Origin: Methylocystis sp. | GTDB lineage: Bacteria; Pseudomonadota; Alphaproteobacteria; Rhizobiales; Beijerinckiaceae | Direction of reading: 5' to 3' | Assembly (NCBI GenBank): GCA_020252485.1 | Contig: JADCCX010000041.1 | Location: 9,487-41,486 of the forward strand | DNA length: 32,000 bases | Part shown: one piece after another, positions 4,707 through 32,000 of the stretch | Numbering within the stretch: the stretch's first letter is position 1 | Layout: the number at the start of each line of letters is the position of its first letter | The notes under the pieces: model-generated | What the model saw: the letters and a program-made list of their open reading frames with translations, nothing else | The model's database searches: none | What the model was told of the DNA's origin: nothing | Translations under genes and position numbers: made by a program

Positions 4707-5636
4707 GTGAGCAGCGTGTCGACCGCGATGGCCGGGATTGCCGGCGGAACAGGCGCAGGCATTGCCTTGCGCCTGCTCGCCACGCTGTTCTTTTCGCTGA
4801 TGAGCCTGTCGGTGCGTTTGGCGTCCGTCGAGGCGCCGGTCGGCCAGATCGTCTTCTGGCGCAGCGCGGTCGCACTTGTGCCGATCCTCGTCTATCTCGC
4901 CTGGCGCAGGCAGCTTCGCCATGGGCTCAGGACCGAGCGGCCGCTCGGCCATGTAATGCGCAGCCTCTACGGCTGTGCGGCGATGTTCTTCTCCTTCCTC
5001 TCGATCGCGCATCTGCCGTTGGCGCTGGCGACGGCGCTGTCCTTTCTTGCTCCGCTCATCGTCGTACCGCTCGCCATCGCGACGCTGGGCGAGCGGCCTG
5101 GGATCGTTGTGGTGGCTGCGACGCTTCTCGGCTTCCTCGGCGTCGGGCTGATGCTCTGGCCGGCAATGGTGGGACCGGAACTCGCGGTCGGCACGCTGAT
5201 CGGCGTGGGCGCTGGGCTTGCCTGCGCTGCAACCACCGCGCTCGCCAAGACCGAGATCAAGCGTCTGACGGCAACCGAGGCCCCGGCGGCCATCGCCTTC
5301 TACTTTGCGATCATCTGCGCCGCTGGTGGTCTGGCGACGTTGCCTTTCGGCTGGGCGAGCGTGGGCCAGACGGCACTGATCGCGCTGATTGCCTCGGGTG
5401 TCTTCGGCGGTCTCGCGCATATCGCGATGACCGAAGCGGTCGCCCGCGCGCCCGTGTCGACGCTCGCGCCCTTCGAGTACACTGCGATGATCTGGGCGCT
5501 GCTGTTCGACCTCATCATCTTCGCACTCTGGCCGGGGTTCATCAGCCTCCTCGGCGCGCTGCTCATCGTGAGCGCTGCGGCCTGCGTCGCCTTCGCCGAC
5601 CGGATCGGCGCGCGGCTGAAGGGCGTGCCGGCATGA
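4707..5636 (+). CDS. EamA/DMT-family 10-TM transporter embedded in the ABC operon
   Basis: 309 aa and hydrophobic throughout, with two EamA-like halves. GTG start 14 nt after the SBP stop. Its stop overlaps the next start (ATGA at 5633-5636), so it belongs to the operon. Confidence 0.85.
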   Translation: MSSVSTAMAGIAGGTGAGIALRLLATLFFSLMSLSVRLASVEAPVGQIVFWRSAVALVPILVYLAWRRQLRHGLRTERPLGHVMRSLYGCAAMFFSFLSIAHLPLALATALSFLAPLIVVPLAIATLGERPGIVVVAATLLGFLGVGLMLWPAMVGPELAVGTLIGVGAGLACAATTALAKTEIKRLTATEAPAAIAFYFAIICAAGGLATLPFGWASVGQTALIALIASGVFGGLAHIAMTEAVARAPVSTLAPFEYTAMIWALLFDLIIFALWPGFISLLGALLIVSAAACVAFADRIGARLKGVPA

Positions 5637-6586
5637 ACGGGGTCCTGCGCGTCATCATGCTTCGGATCGGTCAGGCGCTGGCGACAGCCGCGGTCCTCGC
5701 CTCCCTGTGCTTTGTCTTCGTGCACGCGCTGCCAGGCGATCTTGCCTTGCGCGTCGCGGCCGCACGCGTCGGTGATGAGCGCGTCACGCCAGAGACCGCC
5801 GAGCGCATCCGCCGCGAGGAAGGTCTCGATCGGCCACTGATCGTGCAATACGGCCAGTGGATGGGGAACGTCGCGCAGGGCGATCTCGGCCGCTCGCTGC
5901 TTTCGGGCAAGCCGGTCACGCAGGAACTCGCGTATCACGCCTCCTTCACCCTGCAACTCGGCCTGATCGGCTGGCTCCTGTCCTATCTGATCGCATTGCC
6001 GCTCGGCATCATGGCCGGGTTCAGGCCCGGCGGCATCGTCGACCGGATGACTAATGCGCTTGCTGTGACGCTCGCCTCGCTGCCCACCTTCCTCGTCGGC
6101 ATTGGGCTCATCACGCTTTTTGCGCTTACGCTGCGCTGGCTGCCGCCGGCCGGCTTCCGGACGGGGGCGCATATGGTGCTGCCGGCCTTCACGCTGGCAC
6201 TCTCGCTCGTCGCGTTCTCAATCCCCGTGATCCGCAACGCGGTGGTGGAGGTGCGTTCGGCTTTCTTCATGACCTATGCGCGGGTGAAGGGCCTGACCCC
6301 TGCTGCCGCTTTCCGGCACCATGGGGTGCGCAACGCCGCGATTCCGGTGGTGACCTATGCCGCGCTGCAATTCGCTTTCGTCATCGACGGTTTCGTGGTC
6401 ATCGAGACCCTGTTCAACTATCCGGGCCTCGGCGAACTGCTCGTCAAGGCGCTGATCGCGCGCGATGTACCGGTCATCATGGGGGCGGGCCTCGTCATCG
6501 GCTTCGCCTTCGCAGTCGTCAGCCTGTTGGCTGACCTCATGCGCCTCTGGTTCGACCCGCGCGGGCTTGAGGAGGCACGCGCATGA
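5633..6586 (+). CDS. ABC transporter permease (DppB/NikB-like)
   Basis: 317 aa, about 6 TM segments, with the family-typical N-terminus (RIGQALATAAVLASLCFVFVHALPGD) and the EAA-type loop region. Confidence 0.9.
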   Translation: MNGVLRVIMLRIGQALATAAVLASLCFVFVHALPGDLALRVAAARVGDERVTPETAERIRREEGLDRPLIVQYGQWMGNVAQGDLGRSLLSGKPVTQELAYHASFTLQLGLIGWLLSYLIALPLGIMAGFRPGGIVDRMTNALAVTLASLPTFLVGIGLITLFALTLRWLPPAGFRTGAHMVLPAFTLALSLVAFSIPVIRNAVVEVRSAFFMTYARVKGLTPAAAFRHHGVRNAAIPVVTYAALQFAFVIDGFVVIETLFNYPGLGELLVKALIARDVPVIMGAGLVIGFAFAVVSLLADLMRLWFDPRGLEEARA

Positions 6587-13584: not shown

Positions 13585-16500
13585 TCAGATCGTCGCCACG
13601 GCCGGCGTGCCGCGCCCGATGGCGGTCGAGAGCTGGACGACGCGGACGGTGACGCTCGCCTGCGCCGATCCGAAATCGGCGACCTGCTGGGCGGCGGTGT
13701 AGATCGCGGCGGGCGCGGATGCGGCAAGCGTGCGCAGGACCGTCGAGCCGTTCATCACGTCGACCTCGTAGCGCTCGCTCTCCTCGTTGAGCGGAACGTC
13801 GGTCAGGTCCCGCCACCAGCCGCCGTACCGCGTGCGGCGGACCCAGCTGATCGACAGATCGCCCGAGCCGTTGCGCGCACCCCGGACATGTGCAGGCGAC
13901 CAAGGCTTCAGGGCTTCGCCGCCATTCGCGAAGCTGATCTGTCCAGACTGGTCGCCGGTTGGCCCTTGCGGCACGGGCGCGAACCGCCAGGCGATAGCGA
14001 GGCCGATGCTGGACGCCGAGAAGGTCGGGCGCTCAAGGCGGCCGGGATCAAGCAGCACGAAGCGCGAGCCGCTGGCGTGCGTCGCGATCCGGTGCTCCGT
14101 CCCGAGCCGCCCGCGCAGCAGGCGCGAGAGCCGATAGCGTCCAGGCCCGGTCAGCACCGCGTTGGCGAACTGGATGATCTCGCCATTGATCAGCGCGCCA
14201 TTGGCGCCATCAAGGATGCGGGCATCGGGCAGGCTTTCGAGCGAACCGAAGGCGAGTTGCACCTCGATCACATTGCCGTTGTCCCAGACATGCGCCGGTC
14301 CAGCCCCAAGCGCAGTCACCGTGTCGCCGATCACCGAGGCGACGTCGGCGACGCCGGAGACGGTGTAATCCAGCCCATCCGCCGTCGGCCTGAATAATGA
14401 GACGCCCCGGAACGGCGCGCCGCCGAGCGAGCAGGCGGCCATGTAGAAGGATGTCGCTTCGCCTGCCTCGGCTTCCGTCAGCAATGGCAGGTCCATCAGT
14501 TCCACCCGCGTCGGCGAGGCGGTATCCGGAACGTTCGGCTGCAGGTCGCCCGATCCGGTCGGGACGGTGACGAACTGCGGCAAGTCGCCGTCGGTCGCGA
14601 CGCCACGCACCAGCACGAGCCCCGGCTTGCCATAGGTCACGGACGTCACCCGGAAGCGGCGGATCGCGCCATCGACCGGCACCTCGATCACGTCCGTCGG
14701 ATCGATGCGGATCGCGCGCGTCGGCAGCTTGGCCTCGAGCGTGACGCGGCCCTGCCAGATTTCCCGCAAGGCACGCTGGGCAATGGTCTGTGCTTCCTCG
14801 ACCGAGAGAATGAGCGGCAGAGAGAAGGTGGTCACGCTGCGCGAAGTGCCGAGCTGGCGGCGACCCGTGACGGTCGAGCTCTGGTAGTCGCGGGCCTCGT
14901 CGAGATGCACGACATCGATCGAGATCGGCAACTCGACATCCTGCGCGCGCTCGATGCGGATGCGCGCCCGGTCGCCGTCGCCTTCCGCCGCGCCGAGATC
15001 ATTGGCGTCGATGGCGACGATGGTTCCGCCGCCGCGCTTGACGAAGCGCAATACCCCGCCACTCTCCACCGCGTCGAAGAAGAACGCGGTCTGCAGGACG
15101 GAGATCATCTCGCGCAGCGACTTGCGCTCGCTGACGACATAGCCCGAGACCTCGTCGGTGAGGCTCGTCACATCGATATCGGCATTGGAAAGCCCGGCGC
15201 AAAGGCACAGATCGCGCACGATCTCGGAGAGCTGCATGTTGCCGATCTTTCCCTGAACCCAATGGCCGAGGCGGTAATTGTCGCCGTCCTGCCAGACCCG
15301 TTTCAGCGACGGGAAGAACGGGTAAGGCCGCGCGTCCCAGCACCAGAGGAAGCGCGGCCCGATCATCCGCCGCCCCTGGCCGTCGAGCGGATTGTTCGCC
15401 GGATCGCGCCACCAATCCTCGGTGCCCTTGATCGCGACGCGCTGGACCACGCGGTCCACGGATCGGTTCGAGTACCAGGGGTAGAAGCTTTCCGCCGACT
15501 TCGGGTCGACGAAGACGTTCGGGCGGTTCGGCGAGCAATGGACCGACGGAAAGCCGTATTCGGTGAGCCAGACCGGCTTCATCCGCGGCGTCCATGCGCT
15601 CGCAGGTCCTGTCGGAACGCCATTCACGCGCGGCGTGTGGGCGTTGTCCCACCACCCGCGCAAGTCCTTGATGGCCCAGAACGGCTCGCTGATCGGCGAC
15701 TGGACGCGGTTGGAGCCGCGCCCGGCAAGATCGCGGTCAGCCTCGCTGGAATAAAAGTAGCTGATCAGTTCGCCTGAACCCCAGCCCGCGCCGATGGTCG
15801 CCGGGTCGGTCAACGAGCGGTCGCTGTCAGTGACAGGGAAGTAGGCGTCGATTCCAACCGCATCGATGTTTGGGTCGGCCCAGAGTGCGTCGAGCGGGAA
15901 GTCCACATTCGCCCCGCCACGGTCGTTGTAGCGGTACTCCGACCAGTCGGCGGCGTAGGTGACGGTGCAGTTCGCGCCGAGCCGGGTCTTCGCCTCCGCC
16001 GCGATCTGCCGCCAGAACGGCACGGCGGGATAGGCTCCGCTTCCGTCCCGGATGCGGTTGAGGCCGACCATCTCCGAGCCGATGGCGAAGGCGTCGACGC
16101 CGCCCGCCTGTTCGCACAAGGTCATGCAATGGCGGATGAAGCGCAGATATCCCGCCGGACGGGTGAAGAACCCGGCGACATCCGCCGCAGCGCCCGTGAT
16201 CCTGCCCCGCCAGGGGAACGGGGCCGGATCGGGCGGCGGAATGTCCATCATGATGAAGGGATAGAAGAGGACCTTGTAGCCCCGCGCCTTCAGTTCCTGA
16301 ACCGCCCGGATGACCGAACCGTCGCTGATCGTGCCGCCATAGGACAGGGCGGACTGCCCGTTCGGCAGCGTGTAGGAGGTGACGACTGGCCAGACCGACC
16401 GTCCTCCACCCGCGACCGACCAGAGATGCGGCGCGGTCTCACCCCCGAACGCACCCGACTGACCTTGCGCGTACTCGCATTTGGGCACGAGATCGCAGGT

Positions 16501-17406
16501 CGCAACATCGATCGATGTGCCGAACCAGGCGTAGACGAAGTTGATCCATTCGACATTCGGCAGTTCGCGCTTCAGGTTGTCGATCGAGACGAGGAAGTCC
16601 GAGCGCTTCGTGCCGGTGTTGGCGTTGATCGCCGCCTGCGATCCCGCCGAGCCGTGACCGACCTTGCGCACGATCTCGGTGTCGGTGACGAATTCGCCCG
16701 AGGCCGGGATCAGGCAGACGCCCGCGACGAGGTGGCGCGCATTGCCTGGATCGTCCGAGCCCCGATAGACCTCGACCTCGAAGTTCGGAAATCGATTCCC
16801 GAACGGCGTGAGCTTGAAGTCCTCCAGCATGACCGTGACGAGGCCGCGATGGGCTGGCGTCCGGCCAGCGCCTTCGACCGCCGCGACCAGCGGATCGGGT
16901 GACTGCGCTTCCTCGCCATAGCCGACCCGGATCGCGCTGACATGCTCGGGATCGAGCATCGTGTTGTTGACCCAGATCCGGTAGACCGCCGTGACCGGGC
17001 CTTCGCAGACGCCGAGCAGGATGTCGGCCGAGTATTCGTAGCGCGTGCGCACTGTGGTCTGGCGGCGACCGCCGCCGCTGCCGCTGCCCTTGCCGCCACC
17101 GCCCGTGGTCTCGGTTTCAGTGATCGCGGTCTCCTTGATGCCGCGCACCCAGATGATGTTGGCCGCGATGCGCCCGCGTCCCCAGACCCTCGGGATCGGC
17201 TGGCCATAAGCAGAGCCCGAGACCTGCAGATCGGTGACGCGCGCGCCCTCGCTCCTGGTGACGGCCGCGGGACCGGCGCCGAACAAATCCTGCTCGATCG
17301 CCGCGCCGAGATAGGACCCCAGCATCGCGCCCGCCGCCTGGCCAAGCCCGCCGCCGATGGCGTTGCCCGCCCAGGCGCCGGCGACGGTCAGGATGAGTTG
17401 CGCCAC
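13585..17406 (-). CDS. RcGTA g15-like host-specificity / baseplate protein (GTA TIM-barrel-like domain plus phage tail domain)
   Basis: 1273 aa with a GTG start. It has the Gly-rich N-terminal module, a central region with glycoside-hydrolase-like TIM-barrel character (VLFYPFIMMDI..., AFAIGSEMVGL, WLTEYGFPS) and a C-terminal tail-protein region, matching large g15-type proteins of alphaproteobacterial GTA and phage clusters. Confidence 0.88.
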   Translation of the reverse strand: MAQLILTVAGAWAGNAIGGGLGQAAGAMLGSYLGAAIEQDLFGAGPAAVTRSEGARVTDLQVSGSAYGQPIPRVWGRGRIAANIIWVRGIKETAITETETTGGGGKGSGSGGGRRQTTVRTRYEYSADILLGVCEGPVTAVYRIWVNNTMLDPEHVSAIRVGYGEEAQSPDPLVAAVEGAGRTPAHRGLVTVMLEDFKLTPFGNRFPNFEVEVYRGSDDPGNARHLVAGVCLIPASGEFVTDTEIVRKVGHGSAGSQAAINANTGTKRSDFLVSIDNLKRELPNVEWINFVYAWFGTSIDVATCDLVPKCEYAQGQSGAFGGETAPHLWSVAGGGRSVWPVVTSYTLPNGQSALSYGGTISDGSVIRAVQELKARGYKVLFYPFIMMDIPPPDPAPFPWRGRITGAAADVAGFFTRPAGYLRFIRHCMTLCEQAGGVDAFAIGSEMVGLNRIRDGSGAYPAVPFWRQIAAEAKTRLGANCTVTYAADWSEYRYNDRGGANVDFPLDALWADPNIDAVGIDAYFPVTDSDRSLTDPATIGAGWGSGELISYFYSSEADRDLAGRGSNRVQSPISEPFWAIKDLRGWWDNAHTPRVNGVPTGPASAWTPRMKPVWLTEYGFPSVHCSPNRPNVFVDPKSAESFYPWYSNRSVDRVVQRVAIKGTEDWWRDPANNPLDGQGRRMIGPRFLWCWDARPYPFFPSLKRVWQDGDNYRLGHWVQGKIGNMQLSEIVRDLCLCAGLSNADIDVTSLTDEVSGYVVSERKSLREMISVLQTAFFFDAVESGGVLRFVKRGGGTIVAIDANDLGAAEGDGDRARIRIERAQDVELPISIDVVHLDEARDYQSSTVTGRRQLGTSRSVTTFSLPLILSVEEAQTIAQRALREIWQGRVTLEAKLPTRAIRIDPTDVIEVPVDGAIRRFRVTSVTYGKPGLVLVRGVATDGDLPQFVTVPTGSGDLQPNVPDTASPTRVELMDLPLLTEAEAGEATSFYMAACSLGGAPFRGVSLFRPTADGLDYTVSGVADVASVIGDTVTALGAGPAHVWDNGNVIEVQLAFGSLESLPDARILDGANGALINGEIIQFANAVLTGPGRYRLSRLLRGRLGTEHRIATHASGSRFVLLDPGRLERPTFSASSIGLAIAWRFAPVPQGPTGDQSGQISFANGGEALKPWSPAHVRGARNGSGDLSISWVRRTRYGGWWRDLTDVPLNEESERYEVDVMNGSTVLRTLAASAPAAIYTAAQQVADFGSAQASVTVRVVQLSTAIGRGTPAVATI

Positions 17407-17417
17407 GGATCGGACCT

Positions 17418-18050
17418 TCAGGCGGTGAGTTCGAACGAGAAGTTGGGCAGGCGGTTGCCGAAGGGCGTGATCGCGAAGCGTTCCAGCACCACATAGGCAA
17501 GTTCACGATAAGCTGGCGCGAGGCCCTCGGTCGCCGCGATCAGCGGGTCCGCCGATTGGGTGGCGTCGCCGAGATAGACGCGCCGCGCGGCATAGTGCTC
17601 GGAGCCGATGGCGTTGCCGTCTGCGAACATCTTGCCGATGCCGGTGATGGGCCCTTCGCAGAGCGCAACCGCAACATCGCAGAAGTAAACGTAAGTCACT
17701 GTCGTGGTGGTCTGCCGGCCGCCGCCACCGCCGCCCTTGCCGCCGCCGCCCACCGTCTGTGTCTGGGTTCGCGTCTCCTCGTCGAAGCCGCGCATCCAGA
17801 TCACGTTGCCGGAGAGCCTCGCCTTGCCATAGACGCGCGGGATCACCGAGCCGTAGCCGGATGACTGCACGCGCAGATCCTGCAGGCGCGGGCCGGTGAC
17901 GACGTTGTTGCGCGCGCCTTCGCCGAACAACTGCTGATCGATGATGCCGCCGACATAAGAGCCGATGGCCCCACCGATGGCTTGGCCGAGGCCCGGCAGA
18001 AGCAGGTTGCCGAGCACCGCACCGCCGACGGTTAGGACGATGCGCGCCAT
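17418..18050 (-). CDS. Stand-alone paralogue of the N-terminal module of the g15-like protein
   Basis: 210 aa from ATG 18050 (TGATG overlap with the upstream stop). It aligns end to end with residues 1 to about 213 of the next gene, e.g. LTVGGAVLGN/LTVAGAWAGN, GGGGKG, LCEGPITG/VCEGPVTA, TPFGNRLPNFSFE/TPFGNRFPNFEVE. Confidence 0.75.
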   Translation of the reverse strand: MARIVLTVGGAVLGNLLLPGLGQAIGGAIGSYVGGIIDQQLFGEGARNNVVTGPRLQDLRVQSSGYGSVIPRVYGKARLSGNVIWMRGFDEETRTQTQTVGGGGKGGGGGGRQTTTTVTYVYFCDVAVALCEGPITGIGKMFADGNAIGSEHYAARRVYLGDATQSADPLIAATEGLAPAYRELAYVVLERFAITPFGNRLPNFSFELTA

Positions 18051-18484
18051 CAGGCGATCCCTGGCAGGCGAAAGGCGGCGCGGGTCTTCTCGATCCAGAA
18101 CCCGGTCAGGTCCTGTTCGACGACCGCGCCCGCCTCGCGGTAGCAATGCAGCAGGCGATTCCCATCGCTCAGGAACCCGCAGTGATGGGCCGGACCCTTG
18201 CCGACGCCGAACAGCAGGATGTCGCCGGGCAAAGCATCGGCGATGTCGATCTCGGCGGCATGCTCGGCCATCTCGTCGCGCAGGCGCTCTTCCGCCCGGT
18301 AAAGTGGCCAGGTCGCGGCGTAGTTCATCGGCTGGATGATCGCGCCGACGAACGGCTCGGCCGCACCGCGCACGAAGCCGATGCAGTCGCAGCCCGCGCG
18401 CTTGACTGCCGCCTGATGATGCCAGGGCGTGCCGATCCAGGTGCGCGCCTCGATCAGAAGCGCGGCCCGCGTGAACGTGCTCAT
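18050..18484 (-). CDS. NlpC/P60-family cell-wall peptidase (RcGTA g14-like)
   Basis: MSTFTRAALLIEARTWIGTPWHHQAAVKRAGCDCIGFV... contains the catalytic Cys context, followed by PGDILLF and GPAHHCG. ATG 18484 overlaps the hub gene stop (ATGA). The ORF-track start 18595 lies inside the hub gene. Confidence 0.85.
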   Translation of the reverse strand: MSTFTRAALLIEARTWIGTPWHHQAAVKRAGCDCIGFVRGAAEPFVGAIIQPMNYAATWPLYRAEERLRDEMAEHAAEIDIADALPGDILLFGVGKGPAHHCGFLSDGNRLLHCYREAGAVVEQDLTGFWIEKTRAAFRLPGIA

Positions 18485-19320
18485 GAGCGCACCGGATAGG
18501 AGAACACCTTGTCGTTCCCCGGAATGTGCGGCTCGCCCCGGAAGTTCAGGATATTGGCGAACTTGGCGTTGCAGGTCTCGGGTGTCTTGTCGCATCCGGC
18601 GGCGAGCACGATCTGGTCGCCGACCACGATGGGGCGCGGCATCGGCACGAACAGCCGGATGGTCTGGCCGTCATGCAGCAGCACCTCGTTGACCGCGCCC
18701 GCATTGGCGCCGGTCGTGAAGGTCGCCTTGCCGAAGGTGAAGAAGGCGGTCGCGCGCGCCGTGACGATCCGCACCATGTCGGCGGCGATCACCTGCGTCA
18801 CCGCGTAGGTGTCGGTGCGCGGGCCGAGCGCCACGCCGCATTCGGTCGATCCGAGATCGACGCGGCACAGGCGCGAGTAGAGCTTGCCGGCAGTCTGTGC
18901 GAGCTGGTTCGACAAGCCCCTGATCTCGGCAGAGAAGCGCTGATCGGCGCGCTTGATCTCGCCGAGAAAGCCCTTGCGCAGCAGGAGCCGCCCCTGCGCG
19001 AGATCGGCCCAGTTGACAATGAAGACCTCGATCCGCGCGCCGTCGAACAGACCGGCGATCAGGTCTTCGGCCCGGAGCGCCGCATCGTCGAGAAAGCCGT
19101 CGACATCGAGGTTGTCGACGGAGAGATCGGAAGCGGTCTTGATTGCTGAGGGCAGGAAGCCGGTCGACGCCACATAGGTCAGCCCGTCGACGACAAGCTC
19201 GCGGTCATGGTCGGTGAAGCCGCGAACCCAGCCATCGGCCCGTTCGAGCCGCCAGCAGGTCGCAAGCGTCGTCACCTCGCCGGCAAGATGCGCGGCGAGC
19301 GCGGGGGATGCTGATTTCAT
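18481..19320 (-). CDS. DUF2163 / BR0599-type tail hub protein (RcGTA g13-like)
   Basis: LATCWRLERADGWVRGFTDHDRELVVDGLTYVA near the N-terminus and CDKTPETCNAKFANILNFRGEPHIPG near the C-terminus are the hallmarks of this family. Confidence 0.85.
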   Translation of the reverse strand: MKSASPALAAHLAGEVTTLATCWRLERADGWVRGFTDHDRELVVDGLTYVASTGFLPSAIKTASDLSVDNLDVDGFLDDAALRAEDLIAGLFDGARIEVFIVNWADLAQGRLLLRKGFLGEIKRADQRFSAEIRGLSNQLAQTAGKLYSRLCRVDLGSTECGVALGPRTDTYAVTQVIAADMVRIVTARATAFFTFGKATFTTGANAGAVNEVLLHDGQTIRLFVPMPRPIVVGDQIVLAAGCDKTPETCNAKFANILNFRGEPHIPGNDKVFSYPVRS

Positions 19321-19604
19321 GAATCGGTTTCTTGTGGATGTCGGGTCGTGCGGGGGATAGGTACGGGTCTCAGCGCTCAGAGGGGTCGCAATGCGCCCAT
19401 AGCTGTCGTTAAAGTGCGCTTCGACTGTTTGCTGAACCGGACGTCGGAAAGCAGCCGCCTACTGGATCGGCCATTTACCTTTCTGCTTAAGAGGTACGAC
19501 AACGGTGGGCACAGCGCCTCCTGCTCATCGTTCTTGAACCGACAACAGCCGGAACCTTAACCAAGGCCGCCTCCAGCCTTTCAAAGGCCAATGGAATTGC
19601 AAGC

Positions 19605-19632
19605 TTGTCAAGCCAAGCAAACCGCGTAAACT
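19605..19632 (+). promoter_or_regulatory. Candidate sigma70-type promoter TTGTCA-N16-TAAACT for the 82-aa ORF
   Basis: Read directly. The -10 element ends 24 nt upstream of ATG 19657. Pattern match only. Confidence 0.3.
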
Positions 19633-19656
19633 GCCAACTCTCTGGGGGTTGAGACT

Positions 19657-19905
19657 ATGCTGCGGATCAGAGTCGAAGGTGACAACGAACTTCGGGAGGG
19701 CATTCGCCATCTAGCAAACAGCGCGGGCGATGATACCATAATAAGTGATGAGCGTGGTGCCACCGGCGTAGAGATACTTCAACTCGTCCTTCTGTACGGC
19801 CCTCCAGCCGTTGCACTCTTGAAGCAGATCATCGAACTGATCGAAGCTGGAAATAACGTTCGAAAGAAATGGAAAGTATCAATTGAGGGAGATGGGGCTT
19901 CCTGA
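19657..19905 (+). CDS. 82-aa hypothetical protein in the cargo island (possible EACC1-like small component)
   Basis: ATG with GGGGG 8 nt upstream; plus strand, opposite to the phage operon. The sequence MLRIRVEGDNELREGIRHL...GATGVEILQLVLLYGPPAVALLKQIIELIEAG...KWKVSIEGDG has no TM or HTH that I can assign. Confidence 0.5.
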   Translation: MLRIRVEGDNELREGIRHLANSAGDDTIISDERGATGVEILQLVLLYGPPAVALLKQIIELIEAGNNVRKKWKVSIEGDGAS

Positions 19906-20051
19906 CAGCATCGCTTGAATTTCGTTGTAAGATTGCAGTCTCAGTTTAACGGTATTTCCCTAGCTCAGTAGTACTAAGCGGCACATCCGCTCGGTTGTCT
20001 TCGGGCTCAAGCGCCAGCATCGAACCACCAGTTTGGAACCGAAATCTGGAG

Positions 20052-21461
20052 TTAGCGCCCCTGTTGTGTCACGAGGCAGGCGACAGTTTTCGTCAAGGGG
20101 TTGAGTGCCGTGATGACGTCGTTCGCTATCCGGACAATATCGTTCGAGCCTGTTGGAATTGGCCTGAGTCGCCAGTAGTCCAACCAAGACTGCAGTCGGA
20201 GGTTTTGCTCAGATGAACCTCCGACGTTCTCGGCAACGGAGAGCACGAAAGCAATTGCCCAGGCGGTGCCGACCACGGTGAAAGCTGGTGGTACTTCGAA
20301 TTTATGCATCTGAAAGAGGCAATTTTCTAGCCCAACCATATCGCAGAATACTTCTTCTCGAAGTCCCTCTGCTGCAGTCTGTGGCAAAGCTTGGTGGACA
20401 AGCGACAAAATATCTTTAACCCAGTTGCATGATTGGTCTTTGATTGCATAGTGCCCGAATTCGTGACCCATAAGGAAGTGAAACGCCACAGACTCACAGT
20501 AGCTAAACATCCATTTCTCTTCAGAGATGGCTACACGTTCCGTTCGATCAGCTATCAGCCGATCCAACACTTCAGTTGCAGCGGATGGCCCGAAAACATC
20601 TCTAAGTTCCCTCGCACATCGCCGAAACATGCCTCGGGCGCCAGCGATTTCCCCCGATAAGCGAGGCGGCAAGTTACTCGACAATGTGTTGGAAGCGTCT
20701 TGCTCTTTGTCTAACCAGTCGATTAGTGCTTGCGTTGGCTCCAATCCAGAGGCAATCAGATGGTACAAAGAAAGCGATATCTCCTGAACGAGCATTCGGT
20801 CTATACAGAAAAAACATACTAAGTTCCCTTTGTACGGCTTGCCGTACCAATCAGTCATTTTGTCCTTTTTGCTCAGACGCAAGCATGCGGTGTAAAAGTC
20901 CGTGCCCTCAACCAACAAACCTTGATAGGATGTCAAGTTAAATAGGTTTAGAGCCGACCTCCAACAGTCAAATTCATGAAAGAATTCACCATATAAACTA
21001 GATGCTGCCAAGGGAGTAAAAACTTTCTTGTCAGGAAGTAATTTCTTTACGATTTCTTCTATCCAAGGTTGACCAAAGTCACCAAATGACATTTTTACCG
21101 GCATCCCTGTGTTTCGATCTAATCGGGTTAAAATAGTATTCGGTCTCAACAAGCGAATTATCTGTAGAAGTTTCATTTGCAGATCGTCGTCGCTCATGGC
21201 GCGCCCCATGCTAACCTGTCGAGCTACACTCTCTGCTGCTTCGGATATCAGTGCAAGCTTTTCGTTTAGGATCGTGGCCACCTTGCCGCGAGTACGAGCG
21301 ATGCTGCGTGCGGCCTCGGGCGAAGTGTCGTGTCCAGCGCGATGTCCGAATTGGATTGAAGATGGTAGGAGTGCCAACTGCCGATCCTCGCGTGAACTCC
21401 TCGAGGCGATCTTTCCGCTGGCGGCCAATACCGCAACGCGGATCGCTCCACTTCCGGACAA
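20052..21461 (-). CDS. Orphan HEXXH (ImmA/IrrE M78-like signature) protein with a large unknown N-terminal region
   Basis: HEFGH at 20451-20465 (AFHFLMGHEFGHYAI), then EEVFCD about 32 residues later. AT-rich codon usage. The start is uncertain: TTG 21461 (GGGAGGA 5 nt upstream) is chosen here, with GTG 21476, TTG 21428 and ATG 21209 as alternatives. The ORF-track start 21815 lies inside the distal tail gene. Confidence 0.7.
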   Translation of the reverse strand: MSGSGAIRVAVLAASGKIASRSSREDRQLALLPSSIQFGHRAGHDTSPEAARSIARTRGKVATILNEKLALISEAAESVARQVSMGRAMSDDDLQMKLLQIIRLLRPNTILTRLDRNTGMPVKMSFGDFGQPWIEEIVKKLLPDKKVFTPLAASSLYGEFFHEFDCWRSALNLFNLTSYQGLLVEGTDFYTACLRLSKKDKMTDWYGKPYKGNLVCFFCIDRMLVQEISLSLYHLIASGLEPTQALIDWLDKEQDASNTLSSNLPPRLSGEIAGARGMFRRCARELRDVFGPSAATEVLDRLIADRTERVAISEEKWMFSYCESVAFHFLMGHEFGHYAIKDQSCNWVKDILSLVHQALPQTAAEGLREEVFCDMVGLENCLFQMHKFEVPPAFTVVGTAWAIAFVLSVAENVGGSSEQNLRLQSWLDYWRLRPIPTGSNDIVRIANDVITALNPLTKTVACLVTQQGR

Positions 21462-21472
21462 CAAATCCTCCC

Positions 21473-22054
21473 TCACGCCCTGATCTCGACCAGCGGGATC
21501 GACTGGACGTTCTGCAGGTTGTAGGCGCGTGAGATCACTTGAAGGTGGTCGGTGTCGAAGCGCACCGGCACGTCGAAGCGGAAGGTCGCGACGGGCGTCG
21601 CCGCCGGAGCCGCACCGAATGTGAGCCGCCCGGTCGCGTGATCGATGGTCGGCGTGACGACGTTCCCGTTGACGCGCACGACCACCGAGCCGACGACCGG
21701 GCGGGTGATGGTACGGATTTCGACGACGGGACCGGACGGATAGCGCTTCACCAACTGGAACACCGTCGCGCTCACCCCCTGGCATTGCTGGTCGGTGGCT
21801 TCGAAGTCGCCCCAATCCCTGAAGCGGAAGCCAAAGGCGCGGCCCTTGCGGGCGCGGAAGAAGGCAATCACCTCGGCCATCTGCTCGCGCGTGCGGATGC
21901 CGGTCGAGATGTCATACTTTGCGCGCGAGGCCGCCCAGTTCTGGTTGCGTTGCTCGAAGCCGGACGCGACCATCACCACGTCGGTCGAGTATTCCGGACC
22001 GCCCGTCGCTCCGCGCGCGATGGCGTCCGGGAATGACACATCATGGAAGCTCAC
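21473..22054 (-). CDS. DUF2460-type distal tail protein (RcGTA g12-like)
   Basis: MSFHDVSFPDAIARGATGGPEYSTDVV...SGFEQRNQNW...RFDTD matches the TIGR02217/DUF2460 pattern. The GTG start overlaps the tape measure stop (GTGA at 22051-22054). Confidence 0.85.
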   Translation of the reverse strand: MSFHDVSFPDAIARGATGGPEYSTDVVMVASGFEQRNQNWAASRAKYDISTGIRTREQMAEVIAFFRARKGRAFGFRFRDWGDFEATDQQCQGVSATVFQLVKRYPSGPVVEIRTITRPVVGSVVVRVNGNVVTPTIDHATGRLTFGAAPAATPVATFRFDVPVRFDTDHLQVISRAYNLQNVQSIPLVEIRA

Positions 22055-25000
22055 AGGTTGCGCCTCGCTCGTTCAAGCGCCGATGCCATCTCGGCGGTGA
22101 TCTGTCCCTGCGCGCGGCGGAACGAGCCAGCATCCGGCGTTGTGATGTTGAAGGTCACCACCATCGGCACGGCCTGATCGCCCCGCTGGTCGTACGCGGC
22201 GGTTTCCTTACGGTTCAGCACCCGCTCGCCGGTTTGCAGGATGGCCGGGACCTCGCCCGGCCGGATGTAACCGCCGCCATGAAGGCGCGGCGCGCCTGCG
22301 AACAGCATCGCGGGGATGTGCCGTCCGGGTCCGCCCGCACCGACCAGCCCGCCCTCGTGGAATAGTCCGGCGAAGATCTTGCCGAGTTCGCCGAAGATGC
22401 CGCCACCGGTCGCCAGCGTCGGCGCGTTGCCGCCGAACAGGAAGTTCTTGAGCGGGTTCATCACGGCGAGCTTGATCAGCTCGTTCATGATGTCGTTGAT
22501 CGCCGCCTGGCCAGCGTCTGCCCACGATTTCCAGTCGGTCTTGCCTTGCGCCAGGAGCGTGCCGAAGCGGTCCAGCGCGTTGCCGATCGCGCCCTGAAAG
22601 GCCCGCTGGGTCCCTTCCTGCCGCTGCAGCTCTGTCGTGAGCTGCTGCACCCGGACGGCGTTGGCGACGATCGCCCGGCCTTCCTCGCTGGCGAGGTCGA
22701 TGCCGCGTCGCCGCAGATCCTGTTCGGCCCGGATGGTGGCCAACACCGTCTCGCGCTGCTGCGTGGATGCGCCGATCAGGCCGATCTGGGTTTCGATCAG
22801 GGCGATCTCGGCGCGCTGATCCTGCAAGGCGACTTGCGCCTCCGCTTGGCGTTCAAGCGCGAACTGGCGCCTTGCTGCGGCAAGCGCGGCCTGTCCCTCG
22901 GCTCCAGCCGGATCGATTCCTTGCCGTCGGAGCTGCTGCTCGGCGCGGATCATGGCGATCGCTTCCGAGCGGGCCGAGGCTCCCTGCTTCAGGAGCTCGA
23001 CCTCGCGGGCAAGACCGGTGTTCTGCTGCTCGTAGTCGAAGGCCGCCTCGCGACCCGTCGTCTGCCGCCCAAGCTGGTTGAGCCGCCGGATCTGATCGCG
23101 GGAATAGCTGGCCTCGGGATCGTTCGGATCGATCCCGAGCCGCCTCAGTTCCTGCTCAAAACGCAGCTGATCGACGCCCTCGCGGCGTGCGGCAGGGCCG
23201 CGCCTGACCAGCGACAGTTCCCGCTCACGCAGCGCGATCTCGTCGCGGCGTCGCTCGATGCCCTGAAGCAGGTCCGTGCGGTTCTGCTCGCGGTGAAGCT
23301 GCTCATAGGCTTCACGCGTGCGGTCGATGATGCGGCCGAGCTTCTCCTTGGCCTCGCCTTCGGCCAGCGTCTGCGCCGTGACCAGCGGGCGCAGCGCCTG
23401 CTCGACCTGCATGATCTGCTGGGCGCGCTGGGACGACAGCGCGCCCGAGGAAATCGCCTCGTTCAGACGGCGCTGACCGTCTATCTGACGGCCCAGTTCC
23501 GACACTTGCCGGGCGGCCTCGACCGCCTGTTCGGCGATCCGTTCCCTTAAAGCCTGCCGCGCGCGGGTCTCCGCGTTGACACCTTCGCGGGCCTGATCGA
23601 CGAGCCCCTGGCGGCGTGCTTCCGCGCGTGCGGCGGCCTCAGTGCTTTCGAGATAGGCCTCGGCCAGCGAAAGCGTCGCGCGGATCGAGATGTCCGTGGC
23701 GGAGGTCTGCTCCACCACGGCCTGCGTCGCCGCATCCACCGAGGGGCGATACCGGGCGAGTTCGGTGATGACACGCCGGTAGGCCGCTTCGACCTCCGCC
23801 ACGTCCGCCAGTTTCGAGCGGACCAGCGGATCGGCAAGCGCGGCGCGGAGTACGCCTTCCTGCGTCCGCAGCCGCTCGATCTCGCGCGCGCCGGGGTTGG
23901 TGTCGCGGGCGATGTCGCCGGCCCGCACTGACTGCTCGTTGGCGCGGGCCTCCTCTGCGATCCGCCGCGCGCGCTCCTGCTGGTCGTTCAGTTGCCGTTC
24001 GAGTTCGGCGATGCGCCGCTCGACCTGAGGCAGCATCAGCGGCACGACATTGCCGCGCACGTTCGCCCTGAGGCGCTCCTGCTGCCAGCGCAGCAGCTCC
24101 AGCTCTTCCGTCGGCGTGCGGCCATCCACCGCCCGGTCGACGGCCTTGCCGAGCGCGTCGAAGGCGTTCGAGGCCGAGCGCCCGACGAACTGCCAGGCCC
24201 GGCCGAGCGCATTGACCGCCTGTTCGGCGTCGGCCAGCGAGGGCGCGAGCGCATTCAGGATGACGCGCTGCGCCTCCGCCCGGTTGTTCTGGTCGACCAG
24301 CGTGCGGACATAGACGCGGGTGCGATCGTCCAGGAACCGGATGCGATCGTTGAGTTCATCCGCGCCGCGAAGTGGATCGGCCAGCGCGCGGGCGAGTTCC
24401 TCTGCGCCTTGCTTCGTGTCGACGCCGAGCGTGACGCCAAGATTGCGCGAGACCGCAATGGCGCGGCCAATCTCCTCCGCGCCGATCTTGCCGGTGCGCA
24501 GGAATGCGACCTGCATCTCGCGAGCCGACGAGACCGAGACCTTGCCGGCATCGGCGGAGGATTGCGCGACCTGTTCCAGCTGCGCCGCGGTCGTGCCGGA
24601 CGCGCGGCCAACGCCTGCGAGCGCCGTGGCGACCGCCCGCGTCGAGGCGTCATTGGCGAACCACGCCGCCGTGAGCACGGCAACCGATACGGCGACGCCC
24701 GCGATGACGCCGCCGAAAACGCCGATGGCGGAGCCGAGCGTCATGATCGTGCCGCGCAAGCCGCCAAAGGCCTGCGTCACCTGTCCGCCCTGCTGCATCA
24801 GGATGGTCATCGGCGACATGCCGGTGGACATCGACGCGATCACGTCGTTCACCGTGTACTGAAGCGTCATGACCTGCTGGGTCGTGAGCTTCGAGTTGGC
24901 GCCGACGCCCTTGATCGCCTGCGCGGTCTGATCGAACCGCGACTTCGCCAGCGCGTTCGCCGCCGCCTGCTCGGCGGTGGTGATCGCGCCCCGGCTGGCG

Positions 25001-29991: not shown

Positions 29992-31953
29992 TCACGCGCC
30001 GGGATTGCGATAAAGGCCGCGCCAGTCGATCGCCTTCGCGCCGAAGTCGAGGCGGCACTTGATCTCGACACCGTCGACATCGAAGCCGTTGCGCGTCTCG
30101 ATGTAGGCGCCTTGCTGGCCTTCGAGATAGGCGTACTCGATGGTGTCGATCTGGGCGGGGTTCGCGGCGAGGTACCAGGCTGTGAGGCTCGCGGCGTCGA
30201 GACGAGGCTCGGCGATCGGCGTCAGAGTGCGGATCGAGGACGGGACCACGCTGCCGGTCTGGGCCGGCACCAAGTTCTGCGCCACGAGCTGCTCGGCCGC
30301 GAGTTCGAGCGATGCCGGCACGATGAGGTAGGCGGGCCGGACATTGAGGATCGTCTTCTTGTCGAGGCCGGTCTGCCGGGCCATGGCCGCGCGCGCCGCG
30401 CCGATCGCGGTGACGCTGAGCGCGGTGGCCGGGTTCGCCAGATTGCCGTGGTTTTGGTGGAAAAGCGCGATGGAGTCGCTCATGGCGGCGTTGGCCAGAA
30501 TGATGCCCCAGACCACGTCGCTCTCCAGCGTGGCGATCGCCGTGCCATACATCGCCGGGATACGAGTGAAGGCGTCGAGATCGTCGTTGATGAGGACCTG
30601 CCGGGTGACCGCGACGACGCGCCCATAGGTCTCGACACGGTAGCTCTCGCGCCCTTCGGCGAGGGTGCCGCGCTTGAACTCGCCGCCCTCGTTCACCTTC
30701 ACGAGCTGCGGGGCTTCGCCGAGCTGGACACGATGCATCGCCTTAAAGTCGGTCGCGAGCACCTGCCGGCAGAAGGGAACGTAGGTGCGCGGATAGGCGT
30801 CGTAGGCCTGCCGTAGCGTCTTGCCCGTCACGGCGGCAAGAACCTCGGGGAAGTCCGAGGTGGAATGGAGAGCGCGCGTGGCGATCTCGTCGCGCGACAT
30901 ACCGCGGATATTGACGCCCGAGCTTGAGAGGAACTCGCGGGCGTGCTCCACCAGCGTCATGCCGCGATATTCCCGCGCCGACTCGCTCAGCGGGAAAAGC
31001 GTCGGCGAGTAGCGGTGCAGAAGAGCGTTGGACACGGCGTCACGACGGGTGACGCGTTCATCGCGGCTGCCGAGCGGGATGCTGACCTGAGGCGAGACCC
31101 GCGTCTTCTCGGCGTCGGTCGCGACCTTGTCGAGGATCTCGCTGCGCGCTGCATCGAGCGTGACGCCGCGCTTGACGAGATCGTCGGCGAAGCTGCGCTC
31201 GAGGTGCAGGCGACCGGCAAGATCGTAGATGGTGCCGACACGTTCGCGCTCCTTGTCGCGCGCGCGGGCGGCGATCGTCTCAGCATCGATCACCGGCGCG
31301 CTCGATGCGCGATCCTGCGGTTGAGGCGCGGCCTGGCGCGTCTGCGTTTCGGTGTTGTCAGTCACAGCGTCGTCCATGGCTGCTTTCTCCTTGGATGGAG
31401 CGTCGGCACGGTGGACGACGCAGGGGTAAAGGGGTTCGTCGGCGCGGAAGCCTGCCGCCGGATCAGCGCCGATCGGCACTGCGGAAATCTCGAAGGGCGT
31501 CCAGTCGACCGCGCGCCACAGCTCGGGTGCGCCCGCCTGCTTGGTCACCTCGAAGCGATGGACCTGGTAGCCGATCGAGACCGCACGGATGTGTCCGGCC
31601 TCGACGTCCTTCCAGAGCGGTTCGACTTCGGTCCGGTCGGAGAAGCGGACACGGGCGATGCCGCGTCCGTTCTCGATGCGAGCGCTGCCCGGCACGACCG
31701 AGCCGATGACGCTGTCGAGCACGGAGGCGTCATGCACCTTCAGGAGCGGCGCGCCGGCATTCAGGCGATCGAGCCGGACGGCGCGCGGATCCATCGCCAG
31801 TTCCTCGTCGAACGGATCGCCGAAGAAGGGATTGCGGCGCACGCGCGCGCCTGTGGACCAGACCACGTCGATGGTGCGTTCGGCCGCATCGATCGACGCA
31901 GGCAACAGGTCCGCCGCCCGCGTCAGCGGTGGCAGGTCGATGTTTCGGGTCAT
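29992..31953 (-). CDS. Prohead protease / major capsid protein fusion
   Basis: The N-terminal ~190 aa carry HK97-type prohead protease motifs (LLKVHDAS...VIGSV...GHIRAVSIGYQ). A charged linker/scaffold-like segment follows, then a ~350-aa capsid-like C-terminus ending ...YLEGQQGAYIETRNGFDVDGVEIKCRLDFGAKAIDWRGLYRNPGA. ATG 31953 is preferred over the ORF-track TTG 31959. Confidence 0.82.
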   Translation of the reverse strand: MTRNIDLPPLTRAADLLPASIDAAERTIDVVWSTGARVRRNPFFGDPFDEELAMDPRAVRLDRLNAGAPLLKVHDASVLDSVIGSVVPGSARIENGRGIARVRFSDRTEVEPLWKDVEAGHIRAVSIGYQVHRFEVTKQAGAPELWRAVDWTPFEISAVPIGADPAAGFRADEPLYPCVVHRADAPSKEKAAMDDAVTDNTETQTRQAAPQPQDRASSAPVIDAETIAARARDKERERVGTIYDLAGRLHLERSFADDLVKRGVTLDAARSEILDKVATDAEKTRVSPQVSIPLGSRDERVTRRDAVSNALLHRYSPTLFPLSESAREYRGMTLVEHAREFLSSSGVNIRGMSRDEIATRALHSTSDFPEVLAAVTGKTLRQAYDAYPRTYVPFCRQVLATDFKAMHRVQLGEAPQLVKVNEGGEFKRGTLAEGRESYRVETYGRVVAVTRQVLINDDLDAFTRIPAMYGTAIATLESDVVWGIILANAAMSDSIALFHQNHGNLANPATALSVTAIGAARAAMARQTGLDKKTILNVRPAYLIVPASLELAAEQLVAQNLVPAQTGSVVPSSIRTLTPIAEPRLDAASLTAWYLAANPAQIDTIEYAYLEGQQGAYIETRNGFDVDGVEIKCRLDFGAKAIDWRGLYRNPGA

Positions 31954-32000
31954 GGGCAAAAGCTCAGGTGTCGGGATTGATGGGTTGGCCGGTCGTTTCA

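Follow-up and report, generated by a model that had tools for sequence, protein, structure and literature searches.

Variable slots between phage core genes are the most productive places for finding new bacterial immune systems, and proteins with an HExxH motif have precedents on prophages and other mobile genetic elements. The Lit protease (Peptidase_U49) of the defective prophage e14 is an abortive-infection zinc protease that cleaves EF-Tu; it is encoded by a single gene, is activated by a phage capsid peptide and has no dedicated small partner. Other precedents are the ImmA/IrrE/CapP peptidases of the M78 family, which do have partners, and the RosmerTA peptidase. CapH/CapP is described as a two-protein module of the regulatory-switch kind in a preprint (bioRxiv 10.1101/2022.04.27.489752), and cargo at fixed phage positions is familiar from lambdoid morons and from the hotspots of accessory and defence genes in P2 and P4 prophages (Rousset et al., PMC9122126). 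Here, we analyzed a 32,000-nt stretch of Methylocystis sp. DNA, referred to below as the window, in which a slot at positions 19321-21472 splits a distal tail gene from a baseplate hub gene in the tail operon of a prophage. With moderate confidence, we read the content of this slot as two things jointly: an acquired moron cassette in a polymorphic DUF2460/hub hotspot, and a rare mobile protease-based conflict module serving defence or addiction. The genes concerned are as follows.

21473..22054, minus strand: upstream flank, distal tail gene (DUF2460, PF09343; homologue of RcGTA g12), whose stop codon (TGA, 21475-21473) bounds the slot upstream
20052..21197, minus strand: large cargo gene for a putative zincin-like metallopeptidase of 381 aa, co-oriented with the tail operon, GC 0.47, GC at third codon positions (GC3) 0.51
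19657..19905, plus strand: small cargo gene for an 82-aa protein ("type A" partner), which converges on the large gene and runs antisense to the tail operon
18481..19320, minus strand: downstream flank, baseplate hub or tail-tip gene (homologue of RcGTA g13), whose start codon (ATG, 19320-19318) bounds the slot downstream

The minus-strand tail operon is tightly packed elsewhere. A first-pass annotation of this DNA had drawn attention to the junctions GTGA (22054-22051), ATGA (18484-18481) and TGATG (18052-18048), which are all present, and had set them against a gap of 2,152 nt (19321-21472) between the DUF2460 stop and the hub ATG, a length that proved exact. The genes bounding the gap are also of the types it had named, since the distal tail gene (21473-22054, minus strand) matches PF09343 DUF2460 with an E value of 3.5e-65 and the hub gene (18481-19320, minus strand) matches PF09931 Phage_phiJL001_Gp84_N (E 3.7e-61) and PF09356 Phage_BR0599 (E 9.8e-29). 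Its hand counts of G+C, 21/60 at 20941-21000 and 42/60 at 22081-22140, were recovered to the letter. The sharp fall in composition that it had deduced from them extends over the gap as a whole, with a GC content of 0.39-0.53 inside and 0.64-0.72 outside in 300-nt sliding windows. No other 2,152-nt stretch of the window has a GC content as low as that of the island (0.508, compared to a median of 0.664), and the open reading frames (ORFs) of the island have a GC3 of 0.49-0.51, compared to 0.84-0.87 in five neighbouring tail genes. The interpretation as cargo had been made to depend on a local drop of this sort, and both the computed GC and the GC3 drop sharply. The two convergent ORFs reported for the island are likewise present, i.e., the 82-aa ORF at 19657-19905 on the plus strand and a large minus-strand ORF ending at 20052, and neither resembles a virion protein: both lack a PHROG family, and the large protein also lacks a match in IMG/VR and INPHARED.

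We then surveyed hub-gene relatives together with their flanks, with GTDB genomes supplying 33 loci and IMG/VR supplying 61 (loci are given L numbers and proteins P numbers below). Both the DUF2460 and the hub genes are held by 89 loci, and the distance from the DUF2460 stop to the hub start was measured in this set, which was not de-replicated. The gap is 63 nt or less in 72/89 loci, most of which have the two genes overlapping or at most 12 nt apart, and amounts to 290-2,718 nt in 17/89 loci, corresponding to filled slots. According to the first-pass annotation, the cargo interpretation would fall if related clusters universally carried the same two genes; relatives of either gene were found in 0/89 loci. 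The closest comparison is provided by L009, L052, and L054, which share about 91% DNA identity with the window over 4.5 kb upstream and 5.7-6.3 kb downstream, and in which homology breaks exactly at 21473 and 19321. The DUF2460 protein itself is 97-98% identical to those of relatives with an empty slot. In the closest relatives the empty site reads ...GGGC(T/G)TGA-CCC-ATGAAA..., i.e., TGA-CCC-ATG, and the island therefore replaces 3 nt in the stop/start junction. Relatives whose hub identity is 90% or more have 12 empty slots and six occupied ones, each of the latter with different cargo; L051 adds a seventh occupied slot, whose DUF2460 side lies off the contig. The cargo of these seven slots, and of more distant ones, is listed below, with MFS standing for major facilitator superfamily, HTH for helix-turn-helix, and CDF for cation diffusion facilitator.

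L027 slot: ArsR-type regulator and MFS transporter
L059 slot: 572-aa KefB-like antiporter
L028 slot: MarR regulator and two ORFs
L055 slot: 366-aa HNH_5 protein
L010 slot: Ser_hydrolase and AsnC regulator
L050 slot: 380-aa DUF3800 protein
L051 slot: 402-aa protein, function unassigned
L012 and L041 slots (more distant): HipA and HTH
L096 and L081 slots (more distant): CDF transporters
L087 slot (more distant): 102-aa HNH protein
L023 and L089 slots (more distant): small membrane protein

The 17 occupied loci hold at least 12 different cassettes. Because the slot is either empty or filled with differing cargo in related loci, the DUF2460/hub junction is supported as a moron hotspot. The proposal that the island is acquired cargo at a fixed slot of a structural operon is thus borne out by its foreign composition, its absence from relatives that are about 91% identical, and the presence of other cassettes at the same place. 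As in the lambdoid and P2/P4 cases, the slot is a fixed position between core genes that is empty or carries compositionally foreign cassettes in close phages, and these cassettes include toxin-antitoxin pairs and defence-associated genes (HipA with HTH, DUF3800, HNH). It differs from them in that insertion falls exactly in a 2-4-nt stop/start junction of a translationally tight operon, and in that differently loaded slots share short edge sequences. The tail region was also compared with that of RcGTA, a gene transfer agent (GTA): the flanking genes are homologues of g12 (DUF2460), g13 (hub), g14 (NlpC/P60), and g15 (GTA_TIM), whereas surveyed Rhodobacterales-type loci have overlapping g12 and g13 genes (gap of -4 or -19) and no cargo. 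Literature searches found no earlier description of the DUF2460/hub slot, its precision or its shared edges.

The shared sequences lie at both ends of the island.

21414..21472, minus strand: slot-edge element next to DUF2460, about 40-60 nt, opening with GGGAGG directly after the DUF2460 stop
19321..19406, minus strand: hub-side slot-edge element of about 60-85 nt, running up to the hub ATG

In blastn searches and alignments, the DUF2460-side edge (from 21414 or 21431 to 21472) is common to L027, L028, and L050 with 86-91% identity, and the hub-side edge (from 19321 to 19380 or 19406) is common to L027, L028, L051, and L050 with 81-90% identity; L059 shares about 28 nt of the latter. These edges are shared although the cargo between them is unrelated, and no trace of them is found in empty slots. 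Because loaded slots with unrelated cargo have edge sequences in common, cassettes appear to be replaced within a slot that is already open, which suggests that the slot was opened once in the lineage and that its interior was later exchanged for new cassettes. Spread of cassettes between phages could proceed by homologous recombination through the flanking tail genes, which are about 91% identical. The edges themselves may serve ribosome binding or re-initiation, or act as a recombination site. Neither of the two elements has an Rfam match, a supported RNA consensus structure or convincing covariation. The first-pass annotation had seen no flanking direct repeats, and our search agrees, with neither direct nor inverted repeats beyond chance. 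No target-site duplication, terminal inverted repeats, tRNA, or transposase, integrase or recombinase gene was found with the island, and a transposon-like or integrase-mediated insertion of the cassette was rejected as unsupported in the absence of target duplication, repeats and a recombinase gene. The hub-proximal edge was also considered as an N-terminal extension of the hub protein and rejected, as no start codon occurs in its frame from the preceding stop to the ATG at 19320.

The large cargo gene was assigned a start at the ATG at 21197 by homologue alignment. Its frame remains open further upstream, to a TTG at 21461-21459 that lies 5 nt after GGGAGG, and the automatic gene call (P0001) begins at this TTG and predicts a protein of 469 aa. 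This longer version is not favoured on sequence grounds, because the homologues all start at a methionine matching 21197 and the 88-aa extension is not conserved. The 381-aa protein belongs to no Pfam, NCBIfam or PHROG family and has no match in IMG/VR, INPHARED or PLSDB. Its family is rare: a word-indexed search recovered 5 proteins in 5.8 billion clusters, and an exhaustive profile search recovered 32 clusters in 1.84 billion representatives. As far as literature searches show, the family is new.

An alignment of 24 family members, which are only 15-44% identical to the window protein, revealed a set of conserved residues centred on HExxH. Invariant positions are S236, H240, H245, E246, H249, E282, D286, N292, and R334, and nearly invariant ones are E281, C285, Q296, G248, and W313, giving a signature of S...HFxxGHExGH followed about 31 residues on by EExFCDxxGxxNCxxQ. 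The AlphaFold2 model of the protein is confident (predicted local distance difference test [pLDDT] of 87; predicted template modelling [TM] score, pTM, of 0.89). It shows a three-stranded sheet (residues 91-133), a long helix (224-251) that has HExxH at its end, and the next long helix (277-299) with EE..CD..N..Q. In this model, E281 and E282 fall 32-33 residues after HExxH, on the next predicted helix, and this predicted layout is that expected of a gluzincin-type metallopeptidase. Searches against known families returned motif-level resemblances. The capP model, the only one of PADLOC to be hit, matches the window protein below threshold and over the motif only (E of about 0.04, i.e., 0.042-0.043; 11.3 bits), and a relaxed scan of the 24 members detected capP in 9 (best E 0.0045), Peptidase_M78 in 2 (best E 0.0089), and M48 in 2. 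Searches of the PDB with a profile of the whole family and with one of the catalytic region gave only noise and a motif-level match to CapP (7t5t; E 1.3). The nearest resemblance of the large protein, weak and confined to the motif, is therefore to ImmA/IrrE/CapP, and the protein does not qualify as a member of that family. Judging from the model and the conserved residues, it is most likely a putative zincin-like peptidase of a new family.

The small gene encodes a protein identical to NCBI hypothetical proteins of Methylocystis sp. metagenome-assembled genomes (MAGs). It has no Pfam, NCBIfam or PHROG match and no HTH or other DNA-binding domain; its predicted pattern is beta-alpha-alpha-alpha-beta, with hydrophobic or amphipathic helices and a conserved YGP motif. 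A homologue search started from the 82-aa protein returned only itself, and its relatives came to light among the large-gene neighbours. At 44% identity, the large protein has its closest homologues in L001/L002, L005, and L006-8, and each of these loci carries a 79-aa ORF that is 47-52% identical to the 82-aa protein and convergent, about 11 nt past the large-gene stop. On a distant branch (P0030; L046-48), in which the large protein is about 15% identical, a 78-aa homologue lies 3 nt upstream in the same direction; the 82-aa protein and P0040 match with a pairwise E value of 1e-8. A second type of small partner (type B), 97-106 aa in length, is found directly upstream of the large gene, as P0041 in L042-45 and as ORFs in L113 and L116, and in P0010 a type-B partner is fused to the N terminus of the large protein. 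Type-B partners, including the fusion, match one another with E values of 1e-13 to 1e-25. The two types have a similar predicted pattern and are treated here as two families. Three gene arrangements and a fusion are a strong argument for joint action of the large protein and a small partner.

Two further loci show other arrangements around the large gene. Upstream of the P0010 fusion, L111 carries a divergent 112-aa ORF (5375-5713, minus strand) whose sequence pattern is loosely type-B-like, at an insignificant BLASTP E value of 0.66. In L004 (1381-4218), the gene after that of P0005, a homologue with 34% identity, encodes a 945-aa protein that weakly matches a phosphoribosyltransferase, and no small convergent ORF takes this place; the contig ends within the region upstream of P0005.

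Outside this prophage, the module occurs in a variety of mobile contexts. It is carried on an integrative and conjugative element (ICE) in L001, where it abuts the start of an operon for a type IV secretion system (T4SS) and coupling protein, and in L042 it directly follows a tyrosine integrase gene and lies near resolvase, HNH, and nSTAND1 genes. It adjoins a SEFIR/TIR/NACHT gene in L046, a DDE transposase gene in L112, and a P4-type integrase gene in L116; only one further context came out of a metagenome scan. In every multi-kilobase context, the GC content of the module is below that of its surroundings (0.52 versus 0.61, 0.46 versus 0.57, and 0.34 versus 0.61). The module behaves like a mobile unit in its own right, with a preference for mobile elements and the neighbourhood of conflict genes.

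Taken from these genes and their contexts, the most likely function is that of a protease-based conflict module, whether for defence or for addiction. The 381-aa protein would be a zinc-dependent peptidase of the zincin (gluzincin) type, and the 82-aa protein would bind it directly as an inhibitor, a labile substrate or an adaptor. The pair could be expressed from the lysogen as an anti-phage (abortive-infection) or toxin-antitoxin-like addiction module, in which the small protein would restrain the peptidase until a trigger shifts the balance and the released peptidase would cleave a cellular or phage target. The large gene reads in the same direction as the late tail operon, whereas the small gene lies antisense to that operon, so late transcription would favour the large gene. 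Late read-through of the resident phage may in this way raise the large-gene transcript and oppose the small gene, providing a possible built-in switch. The Lit protease offers a precedent for a prophage-borne anti-phage zincin, as it is also a prophage-encoded HExxH protein with no virion role. The window protein differs from it in lacking a match to the Pfam or PADLOC models, and the analogy is one of possible function only. Neither Lit nor the M78 peptidases nor the RosmerTA peptidase is a sequence relative of the window protein.

Several observations weigh against a protease-based conflict module. Foldseek searches with the model of the large protein found no zincin or other fold in the PDB or BFVD (best E values of 0.5 and 0.06; TM scores below 0.3), and the word "peptidase" therefore draws on motifs and helix placement only. 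Neither cargo protein significantly matches a known defence (PADLOC-DB v2.0), toxin-antitoxin or peptidase family. AlphaFold2 models the 82-aa protein with low confidence (pLDDT 59.5), and the physical interaction of the window's own pair is deduced from gene neighbourhood. The fusion involves a type-B partner, whose homology to type A is unsupported (hhalign E of about 0.1; BLASTP). As for context, the homologue in L111 sits between housekeeping genes, and much of the cargo of the sister slots, such as transporters and regulators, is not defence-related, so that the slot alone does not imply a defence function. Finally, a scan of the island for promoters and terminators yielded no more sites than expected by chance.

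Four other explanations were weighed, which rank in plausibility from an addiction module through an ImmA-like switch and inert DNA to a structural accessory. The first is that the pair is purely selfish, a toxin-antitoxin-like addiction module that stabilises its mobile element and has no role against other phages, with the protease as toxin and the small protein as neutraliser, or the reverse. We regard this as unlikely. Like type II toxin-antitoxin systems such as HipBA, the module is a self-contained and mobile pair of genes, and distant relatives have the small gene directly upstream of the large gene or overlapping it. Its location on an ICE, beside integrases and in a prophage, its sporadic distribution and foreign GC content, and the HipA and HTH toxin-antitoxin pairs in the same slot of L012 and L041 are all in keeping with addiction. 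However, the genes are convergent rather than arranged as an operon in the window, L001/2, L005, and L006-8, being co-directional only in distant relatives. The small partner lacks a DNA-binding domain through which it could autoregulate, and a covalent fusion of partner and enzyme such as P0010 is unusual for a toxin and its antitoxin. This explanation also overlaps the conflict module that we prefer, as a module can serve addiction and defence at once.

A regulatory switch of the ImmA/ImmR, IrrE/DdrO or CapP/CapH type, rather than an effector that kills or arrests the cell, appears more improbable still. Under such a scheme, a metallopeptidase sensing stress or DNA damage cleaves its partner and so alters how genes are expressed or how the host element is induced or transferred. 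The ImmA/IrrE/CapP enzymes (Peptidase_M78, PF06114; partners ImmR, DdrO, and CapH) resemble the window pair in combining an HExxH enzyme with a small partner on mobile elements or among defence genes, and the weak, motif-limited likenesses to capP and Peptidase_M78 are the sole sequence resemblances that the large protein has. The window motif HFxxGHExGHY is similar to RFTxAHELGHY of CapP, and the model puts an acidic cluster about 32 residues downstream on the next predicted helix, a possible counterpart of the downstream Glu ligand of M78 enzymes. In ICEBs1 the gene order is immR-immA-int; the order in L042 is integrase gene, small gene, large gene on one strand, which recalls that arrangement, and the module in L001 abuts the start of the T4SS/coupling-protein operon. 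On the other hand, the M78 and CapP models score below significance, and the window protein has neither a significant hidden Markov model match nor a Foldseek match to solved zincins. It is also larger (381 aa), with an unrelated N-terminal half, and the additional invariant C, D, N, and Q of its family are not known to be part of the M78 signature. The small partner lacks an HTH (Xre/cI-type) or other DNA-binding domain, its helices being hydrophobic or amphipathic. Moreover, the module lies in the middle of a tail operon, far from any lysogeny control region, and near-identical prophages do without it, so it cannot be their induction switch.

A still more remote prospect is that the island has no current function, being inert hitch-hiking DNA left to decay after an illegitimate recombination event in the past. 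Its non-coding parts are as follows.

21198..21472, minus strand: spacer upstream of the large gene, 275 nt, GC 0.60
19906..20051, no strand assigned: spacer between the convergent stops, 146 nt, compared to about 11 nt in homologous modules
19605..19632, plus strand: candidate promoter-like site TTGTCA-16 nt-TAAACT, ending 24 nt before the ATG of the small gene
19321..19656, no strand assigned: non-coding segment from the small gene to the hub gene, 336 nt, GC 0.56

The segment at 19321-19656 had been called non-coding at first sight, and it contains no convincing ORF, tRNA or Rfam match over its 336 nt. Spacers of 336, 146, and 275 nt are long for a phage genome, and the excess over homologous modules between the convergent stops would fit decay; folding of this spacer (19906-20051) is no better than that of shuffled sequence (z 0.16). 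A weak terminator-like hairpin is present in it after the small gene (19977-19991, plus strand), and a G-rich run resembling a Shine-Dalgarno sequence sits between the TTGTCA-TAAACT site and the small-gene ATG. The promoter scan found 1 site, compared to 1.5 expected by chance, and no sigma-70-like promoter was found on the minus strand in the spacer at 21198-21472. The classical definition of a moron includes a promoter and a terminator of its own, whereas the candidate signals of the island stand at chance level, which is also what inert DNA would display. Against decay, both ORFs are full length and have all family-invariant residues intact, the island recurs identically in several samples or MAGs, and 2.15 kb of useless DNA would be costly in a genome limited by capsid size.

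Lineage-specific virion or assembly components, e.g., a tail accessory protein or chaperone, might be suggested by the position inside the tail operon, the co-oriented large gene, and the strong GGGAGG directly after the DUF2460 stop with a frame open into the large gene, but this explanation is effectively refuted by the comparative data. None of the 89 related loci has the genes, not even the prophages with about 91% DNA identity, and the genes lack IMG/VR, INPHARED, and PHROGs matches. Their homologues include some on an ICE and others on islands devoid of phage genes, and they are foreign in composition, with the small gene antisense to the operon.

The reading of the island as a moron cassette and conflict module could be carried further, to an undescribed two-component family of protease-based anti-phage (abortive-infection) systems that moves between prophages, ICEs, and islands, with the DUF2460/hub junction as a general cassette-exchange hotspot. 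We put this forward tentatively, as a doubtful extension. If it holds, the edge elements could be mined as a platform for discovering new alphaproteobacterial defence genes, as the P2 and P4 hotspots were in E. coli. The RcGTA-like g12/g13 junction is widespread in alphaproteobacterial phages, prophages and GTAs, and it offers a simple harvest rule for Hyphomicrobiales genomes and metagenomes, which is to collect whatever sits between the DUF2460 and hub genes. The window cassette is among the least characterised of the slot, despite its confident structure model and invariant HExxH-centred site. Should it prove to be a protease-based defence or addiction module, it would add a new enzyme family to that repertoire; if not, it would still be a clean natural example of precise cassette insertion into the 3-nt stop/start junction of a tight operon.

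The structural module of the prophage occupies the minus strand from about 10.5 kb to the end of the window. It includes genes for a protease/capsid fusion, DUF6441, a Phage_tube_2 tail tube, and a 1,118-aa TMP_2 tape measure, followed by DUF2460, hub, NlpC/P60, GTA_TIM, and DUF2793 genes. The fusion gene is a 655-aa ORF (29992-31959, minus strand) with a weak match to the Peptidase_S78 prohead protease in its N-terminal part and a Phage_capsid_4 major capsid domain in its C-terminal part. Downstream of the hub gene, the NlpC/P60 gene precedes the 1,273-aa GTA_TIM/Phage-tail_3 host-specificity gene. The tail tip is of the RcGTA g12-g15 type, and related viral contigs are 40-47 kb long. Because of the 1,118-aa tape measure, the capsid/protease fusion and these 40-47-kb contigs, the host element is a temperate siphovirus-type Hyphomicrobiales prophage rather than a GTA. 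Its nearest genomic relatives are found in Rhabdaerophilum, Phreatobacter, Bosea, and Methylocystaceae, and the hub protein is less than 46% identical to those of the closest cultured phages, among them Rhodobacter and Caulobacter phages.

Other features of this region were also apparent. A second, minor polymorphic junction lies between the hub and NlpC/P60 genes, where two relatives have an extra 52-60 nt (L055, 4869-4921; L010, 6844-6896) and the equivalent position of the window (about 18477-18485) is an ATGA overlap. Just upstream of the GTA_TIM gene (13585-17406, minus strand), a 210-aa ORF (17418-18050, minus strand) is a paralogue of the first 213 residues of the GTA_TIM protein (48% identity; E 3e-46), and the duplicated N-terminal module includes a glycine zipper. 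No tRNA was found within the window. Ordinary host chromosomal genes fill positions 1 to about 9000, and those by the prophage end form a metal-related set, with a Fur-family (possibly Zur-like) regulator, a CobW-type GTPase, and an SBP_bac_5/ATP-binding cassette (ABC) transporter.

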